DNA of 64,000 nucleotides from Gemmatimonadota bacterium (GCA_003222135.1 QHUM01000038.1:34038-98037); one strand, 5' to 3'. Numbered from the stretch's first letter, positions 4,802 to 23,265 are shown. Translations and numbers: made by a program. The notes: generated by a model from the letters alone, not told the origin.

Positions 4802-4854
4802 ACGACGCCGGGGCCGCGCGCGTAGCCTACAAGGCTCCCCATGGAGGTTTCCCC

Positions 4855-6888
4855 TTGACTGCGACTCCTCGTTTGCTCGCCGCCCTAGTCGCCTGCCTCG
4901 CGCCGGCGCCGCTCGTGGCCCAGGGCATCCACCCCGGCTTGGACCCCGCGAACCGCGACACGACGTGCGCTCCGTGCCAGGACTTCTACCGCTACGCGAA
5001 CGGCGGCTGGCTGGCGCGCACCACCCTGGCCCCCGAGTACGCGAGCTACGGCAGCTTCACGGAGCTGGTGGAGCGCAACAACGAGACGCTGCACCGCATC
5101 GTCGACCGGCTCGCCGCCGCCGCGCCCGCGACTCCGCAGACCACCGACGGCAAGCTCGGCGCCTTCTACGCATCGTGCATGGACTCGAGCGCCGTGGAGC
5201 AGGCGGGCACCGGACCATTGCAGGAAGAGCTGCGCCGCATCGGGGGCGTGGCGTCGACCGGCGACGTGGTGCGCACAGTCGCGCGGCTGCACGGGAGCGG
5301 CCGGGAGGCGCTCTTCAACCTCGGCGGCGCGCCGGACTTCAAGAACAGCGTCATGACGATCGCGTCTACGTCGCAAGGGGGGCTCGGTCTCCCCGACCGC
5401 GACTACTACCTGCGCTCCGACTCGACCGCGACGGCGCTGCGCGGCGCGTACCTGCACTACCTGTCGGCCACGCTGCAGTTGCTGGGCGATCGACCCGCCG
5501 CGGCCGACTCCACCGCCGCGCGCGTCGTGGCGCTCGAAACGGCGCTCGCCCGCGCGTCCCTCACCCGGGTCGAGCGGCGCGATCCGAATGCCAACTACCA
5601 CAAGCTGTCCCTGGCTGCCGCCGACTCCCTCACGCCCCACGTCGCGTGGGCCGCGTTCCTGCGCGACGCCGGCGCCCCCAAGACCGACGCGATCAACGTG
5701 GGCCAGCCCCGTTTCTTCCGCGCGGTGGACAGCCTGCTCGTGGCGCTGCCGCTCGCCAACTGGCGCGACTATCTGCGGTGGCACCTGGTGCGCCAGTCGG
5801 CCCAGTGGCTCTCCAGTCCGTTCGTGAACGAGAGCTTTCGTTTCCAGAGCGCCCTCACCGGCGTGAAGGAGCAGCAGCCGCGCTGGAAGCGCTGCCTCCA
5901 GACGGCCAACTTCCTGATGGGCGACGCCATCGGCCAGGCGTACGTGCAGGAGACGTTCACGCCCGACGCGCGCCGCCGCGCCCTCGACATGGTCGAGAAC
6001 CTGATCGCCGCCCTGGACGACCGGTTGCACACGCTCGAGTGGATGAGCGACGCGACCCGCGCCCAGGCGCTCGGCAAGCTGCACGCGTTCGGCAAGAAGA
6101 TCGGCTACCCTGACAAATGGCGGGACTATTCCAAGCTGAGCGTCGACCGCGGACCGTTCATCGGCAACGTGCTCCGCGCCCAGGCGTTCGCCACCCACCG
6201 CAACCTGGAGCGCATCGGCAAGCCCGTAGAGCGGGACGAGTGGCGCATGACGGCGCCCACGGTCAACGCCTCCTACAACCCGTCGCTCAACGACATCACG
6301 TTCCCCGCCGGCATCCTCCAGCCCCCCTTCTTCGACGCGACGGCCGACGACGCCGTGAACTACGGGGGCATGGGCGCCGTGATCGGCCACGAGATGACGC
6401 ACGGGTTCGACGACCAGGGCCGTCAGTTCGACGCCGCGGGCAACCTGCGTGACTGGTGGACCCCCGACGACGCCGAGCGTTTCAAGACACGCGCGGGGCT
6501 CGTGGCGAAGCAGTTCGATTCATACACAGTGGTGGACAGCGTGACCCATGTGAACGGGCGGCTCACGCTGGGCGAGGACATCGCAGACCTGGGCGGTCTC
6601 AAGGTCGCCTACGCCGCGTTCCAGCGCGCGCTCGCGCGGGGCGCGCGACCACACGACATCGACGGGCTTTCGCCGGAGCAGCGGTTCTTCCTCGCCTGGG
6701 CGCAGATCTGGCGATCCAAGGCGACCGACCAGTACCTGCGCAACCAGGTGACCGTCGACCCCCATGCACCCGCCCGGTGGCGCGTCATGGGGCCGCTGTC
6801 GAACCTGCCCGAGTTCGCTCGAGCGTTCCACTGCCAGGAGGGAACTGCGATGGTGCGGCCCGACAGCCTGCGGGCGCAGATCTGGTAG
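4855..6888 (+). CDS. M13 family zinc metallopeptidase (PepO / endothelin-converting-enzyme-like), secreted
   Basis: HEXXH zinc motif (VIGHEMTHGFDDQG), downstream GEDIADLGG, and C-terminal VRPDSLRAQIW typical of M13. TTG 4855 is preceded by GGAGG (4843..4847) and gives signal peptide MTATPRLLAALVACLAPAPLVAQ. Alternative ATG 4798 overlaps the upstream stop (ATGA). Confidence 0.85.
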   Translation: MTATPRLLAALVACLAPAPLVAQGIHPGLDPANRDTTCAPCQDFYRYANGGWLARTTLAPEYASYGSFTELVERNNETLHRIVDRLAAAAPATPQTTDGKLGAFYASCMDSSAVEQAGTGPLQEELRRIGGVASTGDVVRTVARLHGSGREALFNLGGAPDFKNSVMTIASTSQGGLGLPDRDYYLRSDSTATALRGAYLHYLSATLQLLGDRPAAADSTAARVVALETALARASLTRVERRDPNANYHKLSLAAADSLTPHVAWAAFLRDAGAPKTDAINVGQPRFFRAVDSLLVALPLANWRDYLRWHLVRQSAQWLSSPFVNESFRFQSALTGVKEQQPRWKRCLQTANFLMGDAIGQAYVQETFTPDARRRALDMVENLIAALDDRLHTLEWMSDATRAQALGKLHAFGKKIGYPDKWRDYSKLSVDRGPFIGNVLRAQAFATHRNLERIGKPVERDEWRMTAPTVNASYNPSLNDITFPAGILQPPFFDATADDAVNYGGMGAVIGHEMTHGFDDQGRQFDAAGNLRDWWTPDDAERFKTRAGLVAKQFDSYTVVDSVTHVNGRLTLGEDIADLGGLKVAYAAFQRALARGARPHDIDGLSPEQRFFLAWAQIWRSKATDQYLRNQVTVDPHAPARWRVMGPLSNLPEFARAFHCQEGTAMVRPDSLRAQIW

Positions 6889-6894
6889 CCGCCG

Positions 6895-7689
6895 TCAGGC
6901 GGCGGCCGGAGTCCCGGGATGCGCGGAGCCGCTCGTGGTCTCGATCCGGTTCGATCCGCGCCGCTTCGCGTCGTACAGCGCGGCGTCCGCCAGCGCGTAC
7001 AGTTGATCCTGACTGGTAGCGTCGAAGGGCGCCGTGGCGATCCCCCCGCTCACGGTCACCTCGAGGAACCGCCCGCACACCGGCTGGGTCTCGAACCACG
7101 ACTCGACGTCGGCGCGGAACCGTTCCGCCACGGTGCGCGCCTCCGCCTGCTGGGTGTCCGACAGGATGATCGCGAATTCGTCGCCGCCCAGCCGGCACGG
7201 CACGTCCGCACCGCGCAGGTGCTTGCGGATCAGCTCGCCGAACGCCAGCAGCACCTTGTCCCCAACCCGGTGTCCGTACTCGTCATTGATCTCCTTGAAC
7301 TCATCCAGATCGAGCAGCAGCAACGACACCGGGTTGCCGTAGCGCTGGCAGCGCTGCAGCTCCCGCCTCAGCTCGTGCTCGAAATAGCCGCGATCGTACA
7401 GACCGGTCAGGGCGTCGGAGATGGCACGGCGCTCGATCGCGTCGAGGGCCGCGGTTTCGATGATGGTCGCGTCGACGTGCTGCGGCTGAATGTTGATGAG
7501 GTAATCGAGCAACGCGACACGCCGCCCCACGTCGCGGCCCAGCCGTCGCAGCAGCTCGCGGCGGTGGCGTGATACCTCGCGCCACAGCCGCTCCGCCTCG
7601 GCCTCGGGGACCTGGAGGTGCGCGATCTGTTGCAGCCGCGCGGCGTAGGAGTTGGCAGGCGCCATCCCTTGGCGACTGGGCGTAGCCAT
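6895..7689 (-). CDS. GGDEF-domain diguanylate cyclase
   Basis: DALTGLYDRGYF, LLLLDLDEFKEINDEYGH.VGD and RLGGDEFAIIL (GGDEF active site). Short coiled N-terminus. ATG 7689 chosen; ATG 7782 possible. Confidence 0.8.
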   Translation of the reverse strand: MATPSRQGMAPANSYAARLQQIAHLQVPEAEAERLWREVSRHRRELLRRLGRDVGRRVALLDYLINIQPQHVDATIIETAALDAIERRAISDALTGLYDRGYFEHELRRELQRCQRYGNPVSLLLLDLDEFKEINDEYGHRVGDKVLLAFGELIRKHLRGADVPCRLGGDEFAIILSDTQQAEARTVAERFRADVESWFETQPVCGRFLEVTVSGGIATAPFDATSQDQLYALADAALYDAKRRGSNRIETTSGSAHPGTPAAA

Positions 7690-7909
7690 GCTGACGGTCC
7701 CCCCTCTGGGAGCCCCCACGGTTGGGGGCTCGGGCGCCTGGATTTGCACAGAGCGTACCCGCGACGCCTGCTGTTCTAACATATTTCGTGGGAAGCGGTT
7801 AGGTGATAGAATTAGGGCGCTCCAAAGTGACTGGCGGGCCCCATTCGTGTGCGAATCGGGACGCGACGCCCCGAAATGGGGCGTGTCCCACCTGACACCG
7901 GAGGAATTC

Positions 7910-13706: not shown

Positions 13707-14930
13707 CTAGAACCGGTCCAGCACCCGGTCCCGGCGGCGCGCCAGCCAGTAGAGCGGCACGCCCAGCAGCAGCGTCGCTCCCGCGGCCACCCACGCATCT
13801 CCAATGCCGCGTGCCCGGGCGAGCCAGCCCCAGCCTGTCTGCCCCGCCACCCCACCCAAATTGGCGAAGAACGAATCGAGCGAGATGATGGTGGCCCGCT
13901 GGGCCGACGGGATGTGCGCATTCAGGTATCCCTGCTTCACCGGCAGCATGACGCCGAGCGCGATTCCGTACACCAGATACAGGGCCACCACAACGTAAAA
14001 GTTGCGTAGCAACCCGCACAGCACGATGGCGATCGCCTGTACGACGACGGATGCAATCAGCAGCGCGGTGCGCGTCCGCAGCACGCGCGCGAGGGGTGTC
14101 ACGAGGACATTGCCGGCGATCAGTGTCAGCGAGGTGAGGGCGGCGATCGCGCCCGCCACCCACACCGCTTCGTGGCCGAGCAGATCCAGGAAATACCGCT
14201 GCCAGCTGTAGAACCCGAAGATCATGAAGCTCACCGACACGAGCGAGCCCAGCATCACCGGCCGCACTACGGGATGGTGTAAGCCGTTGCGCATCCCTTC
14301 GACGAACACGCGGCGCATCTCGGCGGGCACGCGGTCCAGGGAGAGCGCGCGCCGGGTGAACCCGGGCTCCGGCATCGCGCGCCAGGCGAGCACGAACAAC
14401 GGTACGACGATGGCGGCGCGGACCAGATACGGCAGGGCCAGATCGACCTGGCCCAGCAGACCCCCGCCGAGCGTGCCGGCCAGCATCGCCGCCCCGAACG
14501 CCATCTGACCGCGTGCGAAGACCGGCTCGAGCGGCTCGGTGTAGCCCGTCGCCTTGAGCGCGTCCACCAGCCAGGCGTCGACCGCCCCCGTGTAGAACGT
14601 GTAGCCGAGCCCGAGCAGCACCGACACCCACGCGAACGGCCAGAACCCCCAGCCGAACCGTGCGATCGCCACGTACAGGAGCGTGGTGCCGAACAGGGTG
14701 GCGAGGCACAAGAGCAGTGACACGCGCCGGCCGAGCGTGTCCGCCACCACGCCGGTGGGGACCTCGAACAGCACGTTCCCCAGCGTGAACGCCGCGTTCG
14801 TCATCATCACCTGGAAGATGTCGAGGCCGGCGTGGAGCTTGAACAGCGTGTCGATACCCCAGATGAGGGACATCGCCAGGTTGAACAGCCCCGTGATGAG
14901 GAGATACGTGCGAATGATACGCGCGCTCAC
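13707..14930 (-). CDS. MFS transporter
   Basis: 12-TM-like profile and the MFS loop motif VADTLGRRVSLLL. GTG 14930 overlaps the upstream gene stop (GTGA); the track start at 14951 is also possible. Confidence 0.8.
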   Translation of the reverse strand: MSARIIRTYLLITGLFNLAMSLIWGIDTLFKLHAGLDIFQVMMTNAAFTLGNVLFEVPTGVVADTLGRRVSLLLCLATLFGTTLLYVAIARFGWGFWPFAWVSVLLGLGYTFYTGAVDAWLVDALKATGYTEPLEPVFARGQMAFGAAMLAGTLGGGLLGQVDLALPYLVRAAIVVPLFVLAWRAMPEPGFTRRALSLDRVPAEMRRVFVEGMRNGLHHPVVRPVMLGSLVSVSFMIFGFYSWQRYFLDLLGHEAVWVAGAIAALTSLTLIAGNVLVTPLARVLRTRTALLIASVVVQAIAIVLCGLLRNFYVVVALYLVYGIALGVMLPVKQGYLNAHIPSAQRATIISLDSFFANLGGVAGQTGWGWLARARGIGDAWVAAGATLLLGVPLYWLARRRDRVLDRF

Positions 14931-15802
14931 GGCACATGTGCCTCGAGCCACTCGTGCGCGATCGTCCGGATGTCGCGGTGCTCCACGTCCGCGGCCGCGT
15001 TGAGACGGCGCATCTCGTCGTCGGAAATCTTGCCTCCCAGCTCCTCCAGGGCGCGCGCGAGCCCCGCATAGCGCTCCAGCGTCCCGGCCCGCACCACCGG
15101 CGCCGCTTCGTAGGGCGGGAAGTAGTGCCTGTCGTCCTCGAGCACGGCCAGGTGCAGCGCCGCGATCTGTCCGTCGGTGGAGTTTCCGGCGATCACGTCC
15201 ACCTTGCGGTCGGCCAGGGCGCGGTAGGTGAGGCCCAGGTCCATCGCCGTCGGCGGCGCGGCGAAGTGGAGTCCGTAGACCCGGGACAGCCCCGCGAAGC
15301 CGTCGGCGCGCTCGAGGAACTCGTAGCCGAAGCCCGCGTGCCAGCGTGGCGCCACCCGGCTCAGGTCCGACATGACCTTCAGCCCGTAGCGCTCAGCGTC
15401 GGCGGCGCGCACCAGGATCGCGAATGTGTTGTCGAACCCGAACGCCGTGAGCCAGCGCAGCCCGAACTGCCGGCTGTACTCGCTCGCGACCTGGCGGAAC
15501 ACACTGTCGCGCTCGACGACGGGCGGGTGCTTGAGCACGGCCGTGAACGCGGTGCCCGAGTACTCGACGTACAGATCGATCTGCCCCGCCAGGATCGCTT
15601 GGTGACACACGAACGTCCCACCCAAGTGCAGCCGGCGCTCCACCGGGACGTGCAGCCGGCGCTCGATCTGTTGCGCCACGATTTCGGCCAGGAGATCGGA
15701 TTCGGTGAAGTTTTTCGCGCCGACGATGATCCGGTCGTGCCGCCCACAGGCGCCGAGCAACAACGCCAGGGTGAGGAGCACCCGACCGCCTATCGCTGCC
15801 AT
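14927..15802 (-). CDS. glycine betaine/choline-type ABC transporter substrate-binding lipoprotein (OpuAC/OsmF-like)
   Basis: Lipobox LLLGAC. Resembles the OpuAC family (KNFTESDLLAEI, DLYVEYSGTA, NTFAILV, MDLGLTYRALADRKVDVIAGNSTDGQI). Confidence 0.8.
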   Translation of the reverse strand: MAAIGGRVLLTLALLLGACGRHDRIIVGAKNFTESDLLAEIVAQQIERRLHVPVERRLHLGGTFVCHQAILAGQIDLYVEYSGTAFTAVLKHPPVVERDSVFRQVASEYSRQFGLRWLTAFGFDNTFAILVRAADAERYGLKVMSDLSRVAPRWHAGFGYEFLERADGFAGLSRVYGLHFAAPPTAMDLGLTYRALADRKVDVIAGNSTDGQIAALHLAVLEDDRHYFPPYEAAPVVRAGTLERYAGLARALEELGGKISDDEMRRLNAAADVEHRDIRTIAHEWLEAHVP

Positions 15803-16416
15803 GCCAGCCTCCGCTGGGCGATCCCCAGCACCGCGTCCGCCGCCAGGGCGAGCAGCGCGGCGGGCAACGCCCCCGCCATGATCAGCGTATCATCCACAGT
15901 CGCCACCCCGCGAAAGATGTAGACACCGAGCCCGCCTGCCCCGATCGCCGCGCCGATCGTCGCCACGCCTACGCTCACCACCGTCGCGACGCGGATGCCG
16001 GCGAGGATCACGCCGGCGGCGAGCGGCAGCTCGACCAGCCGCAACAGCTCGCCGTCTGTCATGCCCATCCCCCGGCCCGCCTCGCGCACCGCCGGGTCCA
16101 CGCCCGCGATCCCCGTATACGTGTTGCGGATGATCGGCAGCAGCGCGTACAGAATCAGCGCCGTGATCGCCGTCCACGCTCCGATGCCGAAGAACGGGAT
16201 CAGAAATCCGAGGAGCGCGAGACTGGGAATCGTCTGGAACACGTTGGCGAGGCCGAGCACCGGCGCCCGCCATGCCGGGCGGCGCGTGAGCGCGATGCCG
16301 AGCGGGACGCCGACGACGATCGCCGCGCCGGTCGAGACCACGACCAGGTAGACGTGCTGCCAGGTCAGTGCCAGCAGCTCGACCGAGTTGCGGGAGTAGA
16401 AGGACAGGAGGCTCAT
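15790..16416 (-). CDS. ABC transporter permease (osmoprotectant/betaine type)
   Basis: BPD_transp_1-type permease with EAA-like loop (REAGRGMGMTDGELLRLVELPLA). Overlaps the SBP gene by 13 nt. Confidence 0.8.
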   Translation of the reverse strand: MSLLSFYSRNSVELLALTWQHVYLVVVSTGAAIVVGVPLGIALTRRPAWRAPVLGLANVFQTIPSLALLGFLIPFFGIGAWTAITALILYALLPIIRNTYTGIAGVDPAVREAGRGMGMTDGELLRLVELPLAAGVILAGIRVATVVSVGVATIGAAIGAGGLGVYIFRGVATVDDTLIMAGALPAALLALAADAVLGIAQRRLAWQR

Positions 16417-16442
16417 CGTTTTTCGGCTAACCCCGGGCCGCC

Positions 16443-17222
16443 CTAAAAGGACTTCCTCGGGCCCTGCGGGCCCTCAGTCGCCGGCCCGGGGTCAACCGCA
16501 CTCATGAACGCCACGGCCTCCGGCTGGGTCGACCCCCGAAACTCTTCCGGCGTCCCCAGGAACAGGAGGCGCCCCTCGTGCATCAGCCCGATCCGGGTAC
16601 CGAGCAGCAAACCCTCGCGCACGTCGTGCGTCACGAACACCATGCCCTTGCCCAGCCTGCCCTCGAGGCCGCGAAACTCGCGCTGCAGCTCGACGCGCGT
16701 GATGGGGTCGAGCGCGCCGAACGGCTCATCGAGCAACAGCAGCGGCGGATCGGCGGCGAGCGCACGGGCCACGCCGACGCGCTGGCGTTGCCCTCCCGAC
16801 AACTGATGCGGGTAGCGGCTCAGGAATGCGGCGGGGTCGAGGCCCACGAGGGCGAGGAGCTCCCGCACCCGGGCGGCGATCCGGTCGGCCGGCCACCGCT
16901 CCAGCCGCGGCACGAGCCCGATGTTCTGCGCCACGGTGAAGTGGGGAAACAGCCCGACCTCCTGGATCACGTAGCCGATGCGCCGCCGCAGGCGCGTCGG
17001 CTCGAGGGCGGCCGTGGGCTCACCCGCCACCAGCACTTCCCCGGCGGTCGGCTCGAGCAAGCGGTTGATGAGCTTCAGGGTGGTCGTCTTGCCGGACCCG
17101 CTGCGCCCCAGCAAAACGAGGGTCTCGCCAGGACCCACGGTAAAGGATACGTTCTGCACCAGAGTGCGGCCGTCGCCGGGCAGCGCGTAGGCCAGCCCCC
17201 GCACATCGACGGCGGCGGTCAC
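16443..17222 (-). CDS. ABC transporter ATP-binding protein (osmoprotectant/betaine type, no CBS domains)
   Basis: Walker A GRSGSGKTT, signature LSGGQRQRVGVARAL, Walker B LLLLDEP, H-loop FVTHD. GTG start overlaps the upstream stop (GTGA at 17219..17222). Confidence 0.85.
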   Translation of the reverse strand: MTAAVDVRGLAYALPGDGRTLVQNVSFTVGPGETLVLLGRSGSGKTTTLKLINRLLEPTAGEVLVAGEPTAALEPTRLRRRIGYVIQEVGLFPHFTVAQNIGLVPRLERWPADRIAARVRELLALVGLDPAAFLSRYPHQLSGGQRQRVGVARALAADPPLLLLDEPFGALDPITRVELQREFRGLEGRLGKGMVFVTHDVREGLLLGTRIGLMHEGRLLFLGTPEEFRGSTQPEAVAFMSAVDPGPATEGPQGPRKSF

Positions 17223-18157
17223 GCGGGGCCCGCGAGGACCATCAAGAAGCGGGCATCGTCGCTCGTGCCGCGCCAGCGTACCGCGAGGCCGGCGTCGGTC
17301 AGAATGCGAACGAACGTGTCGGCGTCGTACTTGTAAGAATGATTCAGGTCGAGACGCTCTCCGGCGGGGAGCGCCATTGTCTCGCCGCCCAGCCCGGCTC
17401 GTACCTCGCGGGTCGCGCGGAAGTGCTTGGCGAGCGGGTGCAGGCCAGGGAGCCGTGCGTCCACCCGGTCTTCGAACACGAGCTCGCCGTCCTGCTCGGT
17501 GATGCCGACAGCCACGAGCGGCGCCCAGGCGAAGCGGCGGTTGAGCGGATTGTCGTACCCGGCCACGGTGTGCTGGGCAGCGTAAATCTCGCCGTCCACG
17601 ATGAGCAAGTCGTGCGGCCGCAGCAGCGCGCGCAGCTGGCGCGCGGCGGCGAGCGGGTCGAAGGCACCAAGCGTGTTGCCGAGCAGGAGGACGAGTCGCG
17701 GCGGCGTTGCGGGGTCCGGGGCGAGGGCCGCCAGGTGGTCAGAGCGCGTGAAATCGGCCTTGATCCCCTGGGCCGGCAGGCCCGCCCCCATCGCTCCCTG
17801 GCACGCTAACTCGAGCAGGGCCAGGCTCGTATCGACCGGAACGTAGGAGACGTGAACTCCGTGGCGGCTCAGCGCGTTAAGCAAAAGTAGGTCTTTGTCC
17901 CCCTGTCCTGAGCCCAGGCTCACGACCTCGAGAGAGCCGGGCTGGACGAAGCCGGCGAGCCGGTCGGCGGATTGAACAATCAGAGAGCGCGAGCGGACGT
18001 AGTTGCGGTAGGCGCCGTCTGAGCAGAGGGCGAGCCAGGCGCGCACGGAGAGTGGGAACCAGTAGAAGAACTTCTCGTCGAAGCGGCGTGCCTGAAAGGC
18101 CGCGACGAATTCGTCGGCGAGAGCGTTCTCGGTCAGCAGGGATTGGATCGCGATCAT
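17219..18157 (-). CDS. EgtD-like SAM-dependent methyltransferase (histidine N-alpha-methyltransferase / Methyltransf_33 family)
   Basis: Collinear with my recollection of mycobacterial EgtD: KFFYW, VSLGSGQGDKDLLLLNAL (EgtD LGSGTSEKTRMLL), YVPVDTS (FIPFDVD), RLVLLLGNTLGAF (VVFLGSTIGN), GYDNPLNRRF, C-terminal YKYDADTFVRILTDAGL. Substrate not predictable. Confidence 0.6.
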   Translation of the reverse strand: MIAIQSLLTENALADEFVAAFQARRFDEKFFYWFPLSVRAWLALCSDGAYRNYVRSRSLIVQSADRLAGFVQPGSLEVVSLGSGQGDKDLLLLNALSRHGVHVSYVPVDTSLALLELACQGAMGAGLPAQGIKADFTRSDHLAALAPDPATPPRLVLLLGNTLGAFDPLAAARQLRALLRPHDLLIVDGEIYAAQHTVAGYDNPLNRRFAWAPLVAVGITEQDGELVFEDRVDARLPGLHPLAKHFRATREVRAGLGGETMALPAGERLDLNHSYKYDADTFVRILTDAGLAVRWRGTSDDARFLMVLAGPA

Positions 18158-18173
18158 AGCTCAGAGTTATCGG

Positions 18174-18203
18174 TTGACGGGTGTGACGGCAACCCGTTAT
18201 GGT
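18174..18203 (+). promoter_or_regulatory. candidate sigma70-type promoter for the peptide/MNIO operon (TTGACG-N18-TATGGT)
   Basis: TTGACG at 18174..18179 and TATGGT at 18198..18203, in the 92-nt divergent intergenic region. A small inverted repeat, ACGGGT (18177..18182) / ACCCGT (18192..18197), overlaps the spacer. Pattern match only. Confidence 0.3.
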
Positions 18204-18249
18204 AGTCGAACCTGCCGTCGTTCTCTTTTCCCAAGCAGGGAGGAAACCA

Positions 18250-18342
18250 ATGCAGATCGTCGAAACCGCAGAACTGGTGCCCAGCTGTCATCGTCCCGAG
18301 ATCGTCGAGACGAGCGAGCTGGAGCCCACCTGCCACTCCTAA
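18250..18342 (+). CDS. 30-aa tandem-repeat Cys-His peptide, candidate RiPP precursor (MQIVETAELVPSCHRPEIVETSELEPTCHS)
   Basis: Hand-translated; below the ORF-track length cutoff. SD GGGAGGA at 18238..18244 lies 5 nt before ATG 18250. TAA stop at 18340..18342. GC3 is 24/30. There are two 14-15-aa repeats, each ending P-[ST]-C-H. Directly upstream of the AKR, DUF692 and partner genes. Confidence 0.55.
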   Translation: MQIVETAELVPSCHRPEIVETSELEPTCHS

Positions 18343-18356
18343 GGGAGATCGGCTGG

Positions 18357-19475
18357 ATGTGCGAAGGGGCCCGGACCGATGTCGGGCCCCTTTCGCGTTT
18401 CCTGGGCGTCGCAGCGCGCCTGGGGTTCGGGGGGTGGGCGGTGGGCGGGACCGGCTGGGGGGCGGCGGGAGAGGACAGCGAGCGCGCCGCCGCGATCCGG
18501 CACGCGGTCGAGCGCGGGGTCACCTTCTTCGATACGGCACCCACGTACGGCGGAGGCGAGTCCGAGCGGCTGTTGGGTCGCGTGCTCAAGGCCGATCGGG
18601 AGCGCGTCGCGATCGCCACGAAGGTCGGCCCGCGCGACGATCCGCGCGCCTCGCTCGAAGACTCGCTGCGCCGCCTGAACACCGACTACGTCGACCTCGT
18701 CCAGCTGCACGAGACTCTGGACCGCTGGGAGTGGCAGCTCGAAAAGCTCCATGCCCTGCAGCTCGCCGGGAAAGCACTCGCCGTGGGGCTGTGCAACGCC
18801 ACGCACCGGCAGCTCGAGCGGGCGCTTACCCTCGCGCCGCTCGCGACCTATCAGGCCCCGTACAACCTGTTCGACCGGGACGTCGAGGAGCGAACGCTAC
18901 CGCTGTGCCGCGATCGCCGCCTCGCCTTCCTTGCCTACCGACCACTCGCGGCCGGTCTGCTCGGGGGCAAGTACGCGGCGCCGCCGCAGTTCGCCGAGGG
19001 CGACCACCGCCGCCAGATCTACTGGTTCAAGGGGAAGGAGTTCGAGCGGCGCCGCGCCGTGATCGACCGGCTGCGACCCATTGCGCAGGGTCAAGAGATA
19101 TCGCTCATCGCGCTGGCGCTGGGTTGGCTGCGCTCGCAGCCGGGCGTGAGCATCGTCCTGGTCGGAGCCAGGAACGGCGCGCAGGTGGACGAGACCTTCG
19201 TCCCCGACCCCCGACCCCTGACCCCCGAGGTGTGCCGTGCGATCGACGCCATCGTCGCCGACGTCTTCCGCCCCGCACGCTCCACGCCGCAGCTCGGCGA
19301 CGCCGCCCGGACGTGGGGCGAGCGGGAGCGGTTCATCGCTGCGCGGCTCGACGGGACCACGCGCTACGAGGCAATCGCGGCCGAGTGGACGGACACGGGC
19401 GACAAGCCGATGATCGCGGCCCAGGTGAAGGTGTTCGTGGACCAGCTCGTCGAACAGGGACTTGCTGAGGTCTGA
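18357..19475 (+). CDS. aldo/keto reductase with about 65-aa C-terminal PqqD/RRE-like extension
   Basis: GGGAG RBS before ATG 18357. AKR blocks (GVTFFDTAPTYGGGESERLLG, RERVAIATKVG, YVDLVQLHE, LAYRPLAAGLL, SIVLVGARN). The tail (ERFIAARLDGTTRYEAIAAEW...AAQVKVFVDQLVEQGL) resembles the helical half of PqqD-like peptide-binding domains. The upstream part of ORF 18174.. is rejected. Confidence 0.8.
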   Translation: MCEGARTDVGPLSRFLGVAARLGFGGWAVGGTGWGAAGEDSERAAAIRHAVERGVTFFDTAPTYGGGESERLLGRVLKADRERVAIATKVGPRDDPRASLEDSLRRLNTDYVDLVQLHETLDRWEWQLEKLHALQLAGKALAVGLCNATHRQLERALTLAPLATYQAPYNLFDRDVEERTLPLCRDRRLAFLAYRPLAAGLLGGKYAAPPQFAEGDHRRQIYWFKGKEFERRRAVIDRLRPIAQGQEISLIALALGWLRSQPGVSIVLVGARNGAQVDETFVPDPRPLTPEVCRAIDAIVADVFRPARSTPQLGDAARTWGERERFIAARLDGTTRYEAIAAEWTDTGDKPMIAAQVKVFVDQLVEQGLAEV

Positions 19476-21057: not shown

Positions 21058-23265
21058 ATGGCTCGCGCGCTTTCTCGCAGGACGTTCCTCCAGGCCGGTG
21101 CCGCCGTCGGAGGTGGCTTGCTGCTGGGCTTCACGCTACCCGCCCGCGGGCGCGGGCGGGGGCGCGCCGACCGATTTGCCCCCAATGCCTTCATCCGGAT
21201 CGATCGCGACGGCCGGGTGACGTTGATCATGCACAAGGTCGAGATGGGCCAGGGGACGTACACGTCCATGCCGATGCTGCTCGCCGAGGAGCTCGAGGTG
21301 GACTTGGCCCAGGTGCGGCTCGAGCACGCGCCGCCCGACGACGCGCTGTACGCCGAACCGCTGTTCGGTGTCCAGGAAACCGGCGGCTCGACGTCGGTGC
21401 GCGGCAACTTCGAGCCGCTGCGCCGCGCCGGCGCCGCCGCGCGTACGTTGCTGGTGGCCGCCGCGGCGCAAACGTGGCAGGTCGCGGCGACGTCGTGCCG
21501 CGCGGAGCGGGGCGAGGTGATCCATGGGCCCACGGGACGCCGGCTCGGCTACGGCGCGCTCGTGGACAAAGCGGCGACCTTGCCGGTGCCGCCCACCCCG
21601 CCGCTCAAGGACCCCAAGGACTGGACGCTCATCGGCACGCCCGCCAAACGCCTCGACAGCCCCGACAAGGTCAACGGCACCGCGCTGTTCGGGATCGACG
21701 TGCGGCTCCCCGGCATGAAGGTGGCGACGCTGGCAGCGTGTCCCGTGTTCGGTGGCAAGCTGGCGAGCGTCGACGACGCGAAGGCCCGGGCGGTCCCCGG
21801 CGTGCAGCAGGTGGTGCGGCTCGACGACGCCGTGGCCGTGGTCGCCGACCACATGTGGGCGGCGAAGCAGGGCCTCGCGGCGCTCGCCATCCGGTGGGAC
21901 GAGGGCCCGAACGCCCGGCTCGACACCGCCGATATCGTGCAGCAGCTCGCGGCGGCGTCACAGCGGTCGGGAGTGGTCGCGCGCAACGCGGGCGACGCCG
22001 CCCGAGCCATGGCGGGGGCCGCCCGGAAGGTGGAAGCGATCTACGAGCAGCCGTTCCTGGCGCACGCCACGATGGAGCCGGTCAACTGCACGGTCCACGT
22101 CCGGCCGGACGGCTGCGACATCTGGGTGGGGACCCAGGTGCCGACGTTCACGCGCACCGCCGCCGCGCAGCTGACGGGTCTGCCACGCGACCGCGTCCAG
22201 GTGCACAACCATCTCCTGGGCGGCGGATTCGGCCGGCGGCTCGAGGTGGACTTCGTCCGCCGGGCGGTGCGAATCGCGATGCAGGTCACGGGCCCGGTGA
22301 AAGTGGTGTGGACCCGCGAGGAAGACATCCAGCAGGACATGTACCGGCCGTACTACTACGACCGCATCGCCGCCGGCCTGGACGAGCGCGGCCGGCCGGT
22401 CGCCTGGACCCATCGCGTCACCGGCTCGTCGATCATGGCGCGGGTGACGCGCGAACTGTTCCCCAAGACGCTACGCGTCATGCGGGCGGCCGGGCTGCAC
22501 CAGCTCGTCGCGATGGTCAAGGGTCTCGACGTGGACGCGGTGGAAGGCGCGGCGGAGCCGCCGTATACCCTGCCCAACATCCGCGTCGAATACGTGCGTC
22601 AGGAGCCGCCCGGGATCGCGACCGCGTTCTGGCGCGGCGTGGGGCCGACGCACAACATCTTCGTGGTCGAGAGCTTCATCGACGAGCTCGCCGCAGCGAC
22701 GCGACAGGACCCGTTCCAGTACCGCCGCGCGCTGCTCGACCAGGCGCCGCGCGCGAAGGCGGTGCTCGAGCTCGCCGCGCTCCAGGCCGGCTGGGGGCGC
22801 CCGCTCGCGCCGGGAAGCGGGCGCGGGATCTCGCTGCTACACGCCTTTGGGAGCTACCTCGCTCAGGTCGCCGAGGTGTCGGTTTCCAAGCAAGGGGAGG
22901 TCCGGGTCGCGCGGGTCGTCTGCGCGGTGGATTGCGGCATCGTCGTCAACCCCGACACCGTCAAGGCGCAGATCGAGAGCGGGGTCATCTTCGGGATCTC
23001 GGCCGTCTTGTGGGGCGAGATCACCTTCAAGGATGGCCGCGTCGAGCAGCACAATTTCAACGATTACCGGGTGCTGCGCATCAACCAGGCCCCGGTGATC
23101 GAAGTCCATCTCGTGAAGAGCACGGAGGCGCCGGGGGGAATCGGCGAGCCGGGAACGTCGGCCGTGATGCCGGCGGTCGCCAACGCCATCTTCGCGGCGA
23201 CCGGCAAGCGAATCCGCAAACTGCCGGTGAAGGACCAGTTGCGAGAGCCGGCGCCGACTCCCTAG
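21058..23265 (+). CDS. molybdopterin-binding oxidoreductase large subunit (xanthine dehydrogenase family, IorB / membrane-bound aldehyde dehydrogenase-like) with Tat signal
   Basis: GGGAGG RBS. Twin-arginine signal [20 protein letters not shown]. IorB-type blocks ([76 protein letters not shown]). Confidence 0.85.

Follow-up and report, generated by a model that had tools for sequence, protein, structure and literature searches.

The locus described here raises the question of whether a very short, internally repeated open reading frame (ORF) encodes a peptide and, if so, what the peptide is used for. The ORF has 30 codons and lies at positions 18250 to 18342 of a 64,000-nt stretch of DNA, hereafter the window, from a Gemmatimonadota bacterium (GCA_003222135.1 QHUM01000038.1:34038-98037) with a G+C content of 69%. 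All positions are window coordinates, except where a locus of a relative is named. The comparison with relatives presented below makes it virtually certain that the ORF is a translated, protein-coding gene under purifying selection. Moreover, the sequences point to the peptide as a highly likely substrate of a multinuclear iron oxidase (MNIO; DUF692, PF05114) and its partner protein, both encoded nearby. On the same grounds we consider it likely that the ORF encodes a leaderless tandem-repeat precursor of a RiPP (a ribosomally made, post-translationally modified peptide) on which the adjacent MNIO acts.

The ORF product past Met1 consists of two units with a 15-residue offset, and 9 of 14 residues are identical between them. 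When the peptide was shuffled 100,000 times with its composition preserved, none of the shuffled versions reached 9 identities at any offset. The first-pass annotation of this DNA had described an internal two-unit duplication in which codons fall into identical, synonymous and replaced classes, and a codon-by-codon recount bore this out: four codons are identical in both units (I, V, L and P), five pairs keep the residue through synonymous changes (GAA/GAG, ACC/ACG, GAA/GAG, TGT/TGC and CAT/CAC) and five residues are replaced (Q/E, A/S, V/E, S/T and R/S). One detail had to be corrected, as the GCA/AGC pair was given there as a two-base change and in fact differs at all three positions. The strong acidity of the peptide that had been pointed out was also found, with six D/E residues against one K/R. 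The pN/pS ratio between unit 1 and unit 2 was 0.33 in the ORF frame, as compared to 1.45 and 1.0 in the shifted frames, although this comparison covers only 14 codons and is weak by itself.

To place the ORF among relatives, one genome per species was scanned with the neighbouring MNIO as bait. This resulted in 80 loci from Gemmatimonadota, Actinomycetota and Acidobacteriota, with MNIO identities from 93% down to 59%. The small ORF was present at the matching place in 73 of the 80 loci; six of the remaining seven end at a contig edge before the expected position, and one (L056) is rearranged. In nearly all orthologous loci the ATG is preceded by GGAGG at a distance of 5-10 nt (in L086 by AAGGAGA), and the sequence upstream of the ATG shows no protein-level conservation and often contains a stop codon. 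The 30-codon ORF is represented by 51 distinct DNA versions; their variable columns were distributed over the three codon positions as 13/9/26, and pN/pS was 0.23 in the ORF frame in comparison to 1.43 and 2.66 in the two other forward frames. The first-pass annotation had claimed that selection acts on a translated peptide and had proposed, as a check, a homologue alignment with dN/dS compared by frame. The alignment supports the claim, given that the ratio of 0.23 is seen in the ORF frame only and that the Shine-Dalgarno sequence and the ATG are kept. Its further statement that an Arg-rich frame (the ORF from 18174) does not explain the pattern holds as well: this frame contains stop codons in 15 of the 51 versions. 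It is the frame of the downstream aldo-keto reductase (AKR) gene, which happens to be open upstream of the true AKR start at ATG 18357. The antisense, wobble-aligned mirror frame also had a low pN/pS but is interrupted by stops in 50 of the 51 versions.

Could the ORF nevertheless be a chance open frame, or a DNA-level repeat without a coding function? It is very short, and spurious ORFs abound at 69% G+C. However, the conservation of the Shine-Dalgarno sequence with its ATG and the frame-specific purifying selection in relatives effectively refute this possibility, and its probability becomes negligible when it is also considered that the gene occurs in three phyla with a variable number of units and that all competing frames except one contain stops. 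The exact 30-aa peptide is already present as a called "hypothetical protein" gene on 314 public contigs. No Pfam or NCBIfam family was found for it, and an Rfam search of positions 17900-18700 at a permissive threshold gave no match. A start at ATG 18199, which gives a 47-aa version (e.g., the cluster representative P0391), was rejected because the 17-residue N-terminal extension is unconserved and the Shine-Dalgarno sequence precedes ATG 18250. The public gene calls from ATG 18199 (18199-18342), in which the ribosome-binding site lies inside the extension, are probably mis-started.

Synonymous codon choice was found to be unit-specific and to be conserved across species. Unit 1 carries TGT-CAT-CGT, codons that are rare in a genome of 69% G+C, in 44-50 of the 51 distinct sequences, and unit 2 carries TGC-CAC in 48-49 of them. 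This may reflect an old duplication or selection that keeps the repeats distinct at the DNA level.

The repeat units of all loci can be summarised by the consensus [IV][IV]E[TAS]xE[LV]xP[TS]CH. When residues are numbered from the Cys, Pro(-2), Cys(0) and His(+1) are present in all 82 distinct units, Glu(-8) in 79, Thr or Ser at -1 in 79 and Glu(-5) in 74, and positions -10, -9 and -4 are almost always aliphatic. The units follow each other with a period of 12-16 residues, and the residues after the His (RP, nothing, SNF, etc.) are not conserved. The peptide lacks an N-terminal leader, unit 1 starting at residue 2, and its C-terminus is the His or one residue past it. Two units are found in Gemmatimonadales, three in the actinomycetotal loci L074 and L076 and in the acidobacteriotal loci L083-L086, and four in Gemmatimonadaceae (L078-L082) and in the actinomycetotal locus L071. 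A HMMER search with the peptide against 1.84 billion representative proteins returned only 29 clusters, and all 20 that were fetched and read belong to this CH-repeat family. Thus, the motif is specific and does not represent a common low-complexity pattern. The proposal of a repeat-type or multi-core precursor, also made in the first-pass annotation, gains support from the relatives with two, three or four units and from the location of the gene beside an MNIO and its partner.

The enzyme that accompanies the peptide shows generic features of MNIO-dependent RiPP systems, namely a PF05114 match above threshold, conserved H/H/E/D/H positions and a small Cys-containing precursor co-conserved in 73 of the 80 loci. 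The five residues H52, H85, E132, D165 and H196 are invariant in the MNIO family of these loci, and the residues aligned with them in TglH (8HCI) and 3BWW are identical; they are presumably the iron ligands. TglH is also the closest solved structure by sequence (E 2e-13). The best NCBIfam matches of the MNIO were all below the cut-offs (given in brackets): ApyH with 103 bits (400), BufB with 84 bits (310) and HvfB with 50 bits (360).

The partner protein was more difficult to classify. Ten of 12 orthologues matched the NCBIfam model ApyI (best E 3.6e-7) and three of 12 the HvfC RRE model, in all cases below the curated cut-offs; the partner in the window scored 19 bits against ApyI, the cut-off being 200. 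No Pfam match was obtained at E <= 0.01, the precomputed Pfam assignments of its homologues held none except one HTH_IclR match (P0197), and a sequence search against the PDB found nothing. The AlphaFold2 model of the partner, with a mean pLDDT of only 60.6, consists of a helical N-domain and an RRE-like strand-strand-helix-helix-helix C-terminus, and its only full-length structural match was TglI, which was non-significant. The protein fits the "PME-type 2" class of Antoine et al.

The peptide ORF is the first cistron of an operon in the order peptide, AKR, MNIO and partner, with a 14-nt gap between peptide and AKR, a 6-nt gap between AKR and MNIO and a 4-nt overlap between MNIO and partner. 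A methyltransferase gene is transcribed divergently across a shared 92-nt intergenic region. According to tblastn with the 80 loci, each of the three phyla has the methyltransferase, peptide, MNIO and partner together, with the methyltransferase adjacent to the peptide, and the partner gene comes next after that of the MNIO in the loci whose sequence extends far enough. Most loci also have the AKR. It is absent from the Acidobacteriota loci and has been deleted in L048 and L014 of Gemmatimonadales, and the clean loss in two lineages implies that the AKR is dispensable for the core system. In L048 the MNIO (5956-6780) begins with AKR N-terminal residues (MHEGARTDVGPLSR...) after the clean AKR deletion. 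Transporters of the ATP-binding cassette (ABC) type and of the major facilitator superfamily (MFS) are linked to the system in Gemmatimonadota only.

In the region upstream of the peptide gene, the block TTGACGG...GGCAACCCG...TA(T/G)G(G/A)T is kept in Gemmatimonadales loci. TGACGG occurs twice within this promoter-like region (18175 and 18184), an inverted pair GACGGCA/TGCCGTC (18185-18191 and 18213-18219) brackets the -10 box, and ACGGGT/ACCCGT repeats overlap the promoter-like site TTGACG-18-TATGGT. The presence of these repeats in a control region shared by divergent genes suggests that they are a candidate operator of some regulator. The coordinates of the features are collected in the table.

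Table. Coordinates of the peptide gene, its repeat units, the control region and the neighbouring genes in the window.
Feature	Position	Strand	Detail or basis
Precursor peptide gene	18250..18342	+	ATG 18250 to TAA 18340-18342; 30 aa, MQIVETAELVPSCHRPEIVETSELEPTCHS; precursor role predicted
Unit 1 (QIVETAELVPSCHRP)	18253..18297	+	Cys13, 18286-18288; His14, 18289-18291
Unit 2 (EIVETSELEPTCHS)	18298..18339	+	Cys28, 18331-18333; His29, 18334-18336
Promoter-like region of peptide operon	18174..18219	+	TTGACG, 18 nt, TATGGT; scan found 1 site vs 0.0 expected
Shine-Dalgarno GGAGG	18239..18243	+	6 nt before ATG 18250
AKR, 372 aa	18357..19475	+	Pfam Aldo_ket_red 5e-57; D-Y-K-H tetrad
AKR C-terminal winged-helix/PqqD-like domain (putative), ~70 aa	~19254-19472	+	AlphaFold2 pLDDT 93.6
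MNIO (DUF692), 262 aa	19482..20270	+	PF05114 91.5 bits vs gathering cut-off 25
MNIO partner, 258 aa	20267..21043	+	No Pfam family; start overlaps MNIO stop codon
EgtD-like S-adenosylmethionine (SAM) methyltransferase (Methyltransf_33)	17219..18157	-	PF10017 E 5.5e-23
Transport genes downstream of methyltransferase	13707..17222	-	Betaine-type ABC transporter and MFS; Pfam, synteny
ABC ATPase	16443-17222	-	Pfam
ABC permease	15790-16416	-	Pfam
OpuAC binding protein	14927-15802	-	Pfam
MFS transporter	13707-14951	-	Pfam

The remaining enzymes of the locus were compared with known families. For the C-terminal domain of the AKR, PqqD (PF05402) was the top Pfam match in three of five orthologues, below threshold (E 6e-4 to 0.024). 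The alignment of this domain with the C-terminal domain of the partner by hhalign gave an E value of 0.0033 and a probability of 9.6%, and a profile search against PDB sequences returned nothing relevant. The model is suggestive of a winged-helix/RRE-type domain. The methyltransferase profile matched EgtD structures with an E value of 2.7e-15, and the protein keeps the SAM motif together with equivalents of EgtD Y39, F47, Y56, Y206 and S284. The equivalents of Tyr206 and Ser284 are invariant (as Y201 and S274), and in EgtD these two residues are carboxylate contacts. A profile alignment to EgtD structures showed that N166 is replaced by A/G and E282 by N/S/P in the methyltransferase family; E282 and N166 are presumably the residues that contact the substrate imidazole and alpha-amine in EgtD. 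The score against the EgtD equivalog model was 63.9 bits as compared with a cut-off of 290.9, and it was also far below the EasF cut-off. A true EgtD in an ergothioneine operon was rejected on this low score, on the changed N166 and E282 and on the absence of EgtB/C/E. The OpuAC-type binding protein is closest to the structures of OpuBC, OpuCC and EgtUC, which bind quaternary amines; its sequence similarity to EgtUC, which binds ergothioneine, is roughly the same as to OpuBC and OpuCC, which bind choline or carnitine. A lipoprotein-like signal (MAAIGGRVLLTLALLLGACG) forms the N-terminus of the binding protein.

How could these components act together? In the explanation that we favour, the hydrophobic-acidic IVETxEL stretch of each unit would form a short beta-strand-like recognition part to which the winged-helix (RRE-type) domain of the partner binds, and the invariant Pro-(Thr/Ser)-Cys-His end would enter the di/tri-iron site of the MNIO. 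The MNIO would then bind the Cys thiolate, use O2 and oxidise the Cys position of each unit independently, and such independent processing would allow the number of copies to vary between 2 and 4. The MNIOs described in the literature mostly target a Cys of a small adjacent precursor together with partner proteins (PMC12452194, PMC13097082); in these enzymes the substrate Cys thiolate is bound at a ferric ion and the Cys residue is oxidised. For this reason, oxidation of the Cys to a thio-heterocycle or thioamide appears to be the single most likely outcome. By the same analogy we hold, with moderate confidence, that the Cys itself is the modified residue. A further and only tentative guess is that a Cys-derived thio-heterocycle or thioamide and the adjacent His would together give each unit a site that binds metal or is redox-active, the metal site of the heterocycle or thioamide type being possible rather than probable. 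As regards the tailoring steps, we infer that the AKR, recruited via its own winged-helix domain, could reduce a peptide carbonyl, that the EgtD-like methyltransferase could add one or more methyl groups, and that in Gemmatimonadota the MFS exporter and the binding-protein-dependent ABC importer could handle the product.

Several points weigh against this explanation. The whole case is built on sequence and synteny. Among characterised MNIOs the nearest is ApyH, whose target is a C-terminal Asp, and the conserved Cys of its substrate is essential yet unmodified (PMC11117315); therefore, the Cys may not be the modified residue in the present system. With about 10 residues between its recognition stretch and the Cys, the unit is short; it is also leaderless and comes with no dedicated protease, which is atypical for RRE-guided RiPPs. 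The partner model, itself of low confidence, had no significant Foldseek match, and the Foldseek matches of the AKR C-terminal domain, which were winged-helix and lasso-peptide B1 RRE proteins with TM of about 0.5, had E values above 1, none being significant. In addition, the expected ligands of the OpuAC-type binding protein are small quaternary amines and not a 30-mer. Finally, L056 keeps the MNIO and the partner, but owing to a rearrangement the 1.7 kb of contig that precede its MNIO contain no peptide gene.

There are three other ways of reading a translated peptide. The Cys might only anchor the peptide to the iron cluster, the invariant His or Thr/Ser being the residue that is oxidised, as in the case of the unmodified Cys of ApyA. 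We consider this rather unlikely, since most characterised MNIOs oxidise the Cys itself, the ApyH match is weak at 103 bits vs the cut-off of 400, and the equivalents of EgtD E282 and N166, residues that contact the substrate in EgtD, are changed. It is nevertheless plausible: ApyH, the nearest relative, gave the best score of the MNIO, ApyHI modifies a non-Cys residue and yet requires a conserved Cys, the His(+1) is as invariant as the Cys (82 of 82 units), and the conserved core includes an EgtD-like methyltransferase, whose family acts on histidine and aromatic amino acids. A different view is that the peptide is a disposable scaffold, comparable to pearlins, mycofactocin and pyrroloquinoline quinone (PQQ), in which the Cys-His pair is oxidised, excised by housekeeping peptidases as a small Cys/His-derived molecule, N-methylated by the EgtD-like enzyme to a betaine and imported by the betaine-type ABC transporter. 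The EgtD-family methyltransferase heads a run with an OpuAC/EgtUC-like binding protein, a permease, an ATPase and an MFS protein, the presumed carboxylate contacts Tyr206 and Ser284 have invariant equivalents, the linker residues after the His are unconserved, and multi-copy cores are typical where several product molecules come from one scaffold. However, a conserved protease, C-S lyase or pyridoxal phosphate (PLP)-dependent enzyme is absent from every locus version, the transporter is missing in the Actinomycetota and Acidobacteriota loci, EgtD N166 and E282 are unconserved and the equivalog score is 64 vs 291, all of which makes the scaffold improbable. Distinctly improbable is a scheme in which the scaffold yields a small sulfur-histidine metabolite: the neighbouring Cys and His of each unit would be joined or rearranged by the MNIO and set free by cellular peptidases, after which the EgtD-like enzyme would make the betaine, and the OpuAC/EgtUC-type ABC transporter and the MFS protein would cycle the product. 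If such a Cys-His scaffold were true, soil Gemmatimonadota would have a route, templated by a peptide, to a thiol-histidine compound of the ergothioneine or ovothiol type.

It can also be asked whether the translated peptide needs an enzyme at all. An unmodified acidic Cys/His peptide could serve as a metal-binding micropeptide, Cys and His being classic metal ligands, or the ORF could be a regulatory leader peptide for the operon, as it is the first cistron and ends 14 nt upstream of the next gene. Yet no terminator or antiterminator was seen between the ORF and the AKR gene, there was no Rfam match, and conservation covers the whole unit and not regulatory codons. Moreover, the gene is strictly linked to a peptide-modifying enzyme family and to partner domains of the peptide-binding kind, and in loci that have lost the AKR the gene is still linked to the MNIO, directly before which it then stands. 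This makes an unmodified micropeptide or leader peptide very improbable, and an MNIO-modified, leaderless tandem-repeat precursor remains the reading that we prefer.

The comparison of such a precursor with known MNIO systems revealed likenesses to several of them. The aminopyruvatide pathway of Burkholderia (ApyA/ApyH/ApyI/ApyS; PMC11117315) provides the best library matches of both the MNIO and the partner (ApyH and ApyI). It also has a non-DUF2063 "PME-type 2" partner, a precursor without a signal peptide, a pathway methyltransferase and an essential conserved Cys. However, our proteins score far below the cut-offs of these models, our peptide has no C-terminal Asp, and no P450 or B12-dependent radical SAM enzyme is present in the neighbourhoods. 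Moreover, ApyA consists of a leader and a single core, whereas the present precursor is leaderless with 2-4 tandem cores, and ApyS resembles MppJ and is not of the EgtD type (PMC11117315).

In captophorins, bufferins and oxazolin (FonA, HvfA and BufA; 5-thiooxazole copper-binding peptides; PMC13097082, PMC11626156), an MNIO and its partner act on Cys residues in short repeats, and the EGKCG repeats come closest to the many identical sites within a single precursor seen here. These products bind metals, and BufB was the second-best match of the MNIO in the window. In contrast to these systems, the locus described here has no Sec signal peptide, no DUF2063 (PME-type 1) partner, no DoxX, no DUF2282 and no EGKCG, Lys-Cys or Cys-Lys motif; its units are 12-16 residues long with an invariant P-(T/S)-C-H, and its tailoring genes encode an EgtD-like methyltransferase and an AKR. 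Captophorins and bufferins are known mostly from Pseudomonadota, whereas our loci come from Gemmatimonadota, Acidobacteriota and Actinomycetota. An assignment to the bufferins or captophorins was rejected on the partner type, the missing signal peptide and the motif.

Methanobactins (MbnA/MbnB/MbnC) likewise combine a small Cys precursor with an MNIO/partner pair and follow an export-and-reuptake logic, and a TonB-dependent receptor adjoins one of our acidobacterial loci. Unlike in methanobactins, however, there is no leader/core split and no aminotransferase here, the precursor is a different one, no MbnB structure was among the PDB matches at E <= 0.01, and the partner had no Pfam match, MbnC included. 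The pearlin system (TglA/TglHI) resembles ours in the Cys-centred chemistry that we predict, in TglH as the closest solved structure and in TglI as the sole full-length, non-significant match of the partner. It differs in that the Cys is appended at the C-terminus, whereas it is internal and repeated in our peptides, and no tRNA-dependent amino-acid-adding (PEARL) enzyme or dedicated protease was seen within ~6-8 kb in the loci inspected. As for EgtD, the ergothioneine histidine N-alpha-trimethyltransferase, the methyltransferase shares its PF10017 fold family, the SAM motif and the five equivalent residues listed above. Unlike an EgtD gene, it has no EgtB/C/E or EanB gene seen nearby, scores 64 vs 291 bits with N166 and E282 changed, and is always paired with the peptide, MNIO and partner.

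The gene neighbourhoods vary beyond the conserved core. In L056 the AKR catalytic domain, the peptide and the methyltransferase are gone, and the AKR C-terminal domain forms a separate 95-aa ORF (1411-1698) directly before the MNIO. A protein with an LssY_C domain is inserted between MNIO and partner in L023 (6783-7991). L063 carries a signal-peptide-bearing alpha/beta-hydrolase (S33-like) between AKR and MNIO (4842-5987) and a Vgb-lyase-like beta-propeller between MNIO and partner (6792-7739); the inserted S33-like hydrolase of the L063 group could be a candidate processing enzyme. Neighbours with a metal or redox flavour were observed as well: a TonB-dependent receptor and a Fe/Mn superoxide dismutase in L086 (2310-4535 and 7829-8431), MacAB-type efflux genes with a TonB C-terminal protein in L083 (7226-10527) and an Oxidored_molyb protein in L079 (7824-8537). 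None of these is conserved across the family. Pfam scans of the distant loci found no common protease or lyase, only lineage-specific neighbours, including a peptidase M28 and a Crp-family regulator. In the window, the gene for a molybdopterin-binding oxidoreductase subunit with a twin-arginine translocation (TAT) signal and a MoCoBD domain (21058-23265) begins 15 nt past the end of the partner gene. In loci L001-L006, which are syntenic in other respects, a 153-aa ORF and a Fer2 small subunit lie between the partner and the MoCoBD gene (L001 10804-12026), and about 1 kb, with the ferredoxin-like subunit in it, seems to be missing from the strain of the window through loss.

With respect to previous work, neither an MNIO together with an EgtD-like enzyme nor a Cys-His repeat precursor is described in the literature searched, outside of which most subscription-journal papers lie. 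The main text of the 2025 MNIO landscape survey mentions no Gemmatimonadota, Acidobacteriota, methyltransferases or aldo-keto reductases, and entries for Methyltransf_33, PF10017 or Aldo_ket_red are absent from its supplementary files. Other motifs are listed in the 2026 captophorin survey, and neither survey mentions the CH-repeat precursor family. Judged from its genes, the locus is most likely an MNIO RiPP pathway in kind, with a distinct leaderless tandem-core precursor family from soil bacteria.

MNIOs are a fast-growing source of unprecedented peptide chemistry, which includes oxazolone-thioamides, 5-thiooxazoles, carbon excision, C-terminal keto acids and nitriles. The locus described here would define an MNIO clade characterised by a leaderless tandem-core precursor with an invariant Cys-His dyad, and it would add two tailoring enzymes not found in the MNIO papers searched: an EgtD-type methyltransferase and an AKR with a putative winged-helix domain of its own. 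The minimal set comprises no more than a 30-aa peptide, an enzyme of 262 aa and a partner of 258 aa, and this small size makes it an easy target for heterologous reconstitution, and the natural variation between 2 and 4 units offers a ready-made test of how an MNIO may handle multiple sites without a leader. The family is common in soil metagenomes, as the exact peptide on 314 contigs indicates, and it extends over three phyla that are rarely cultured.

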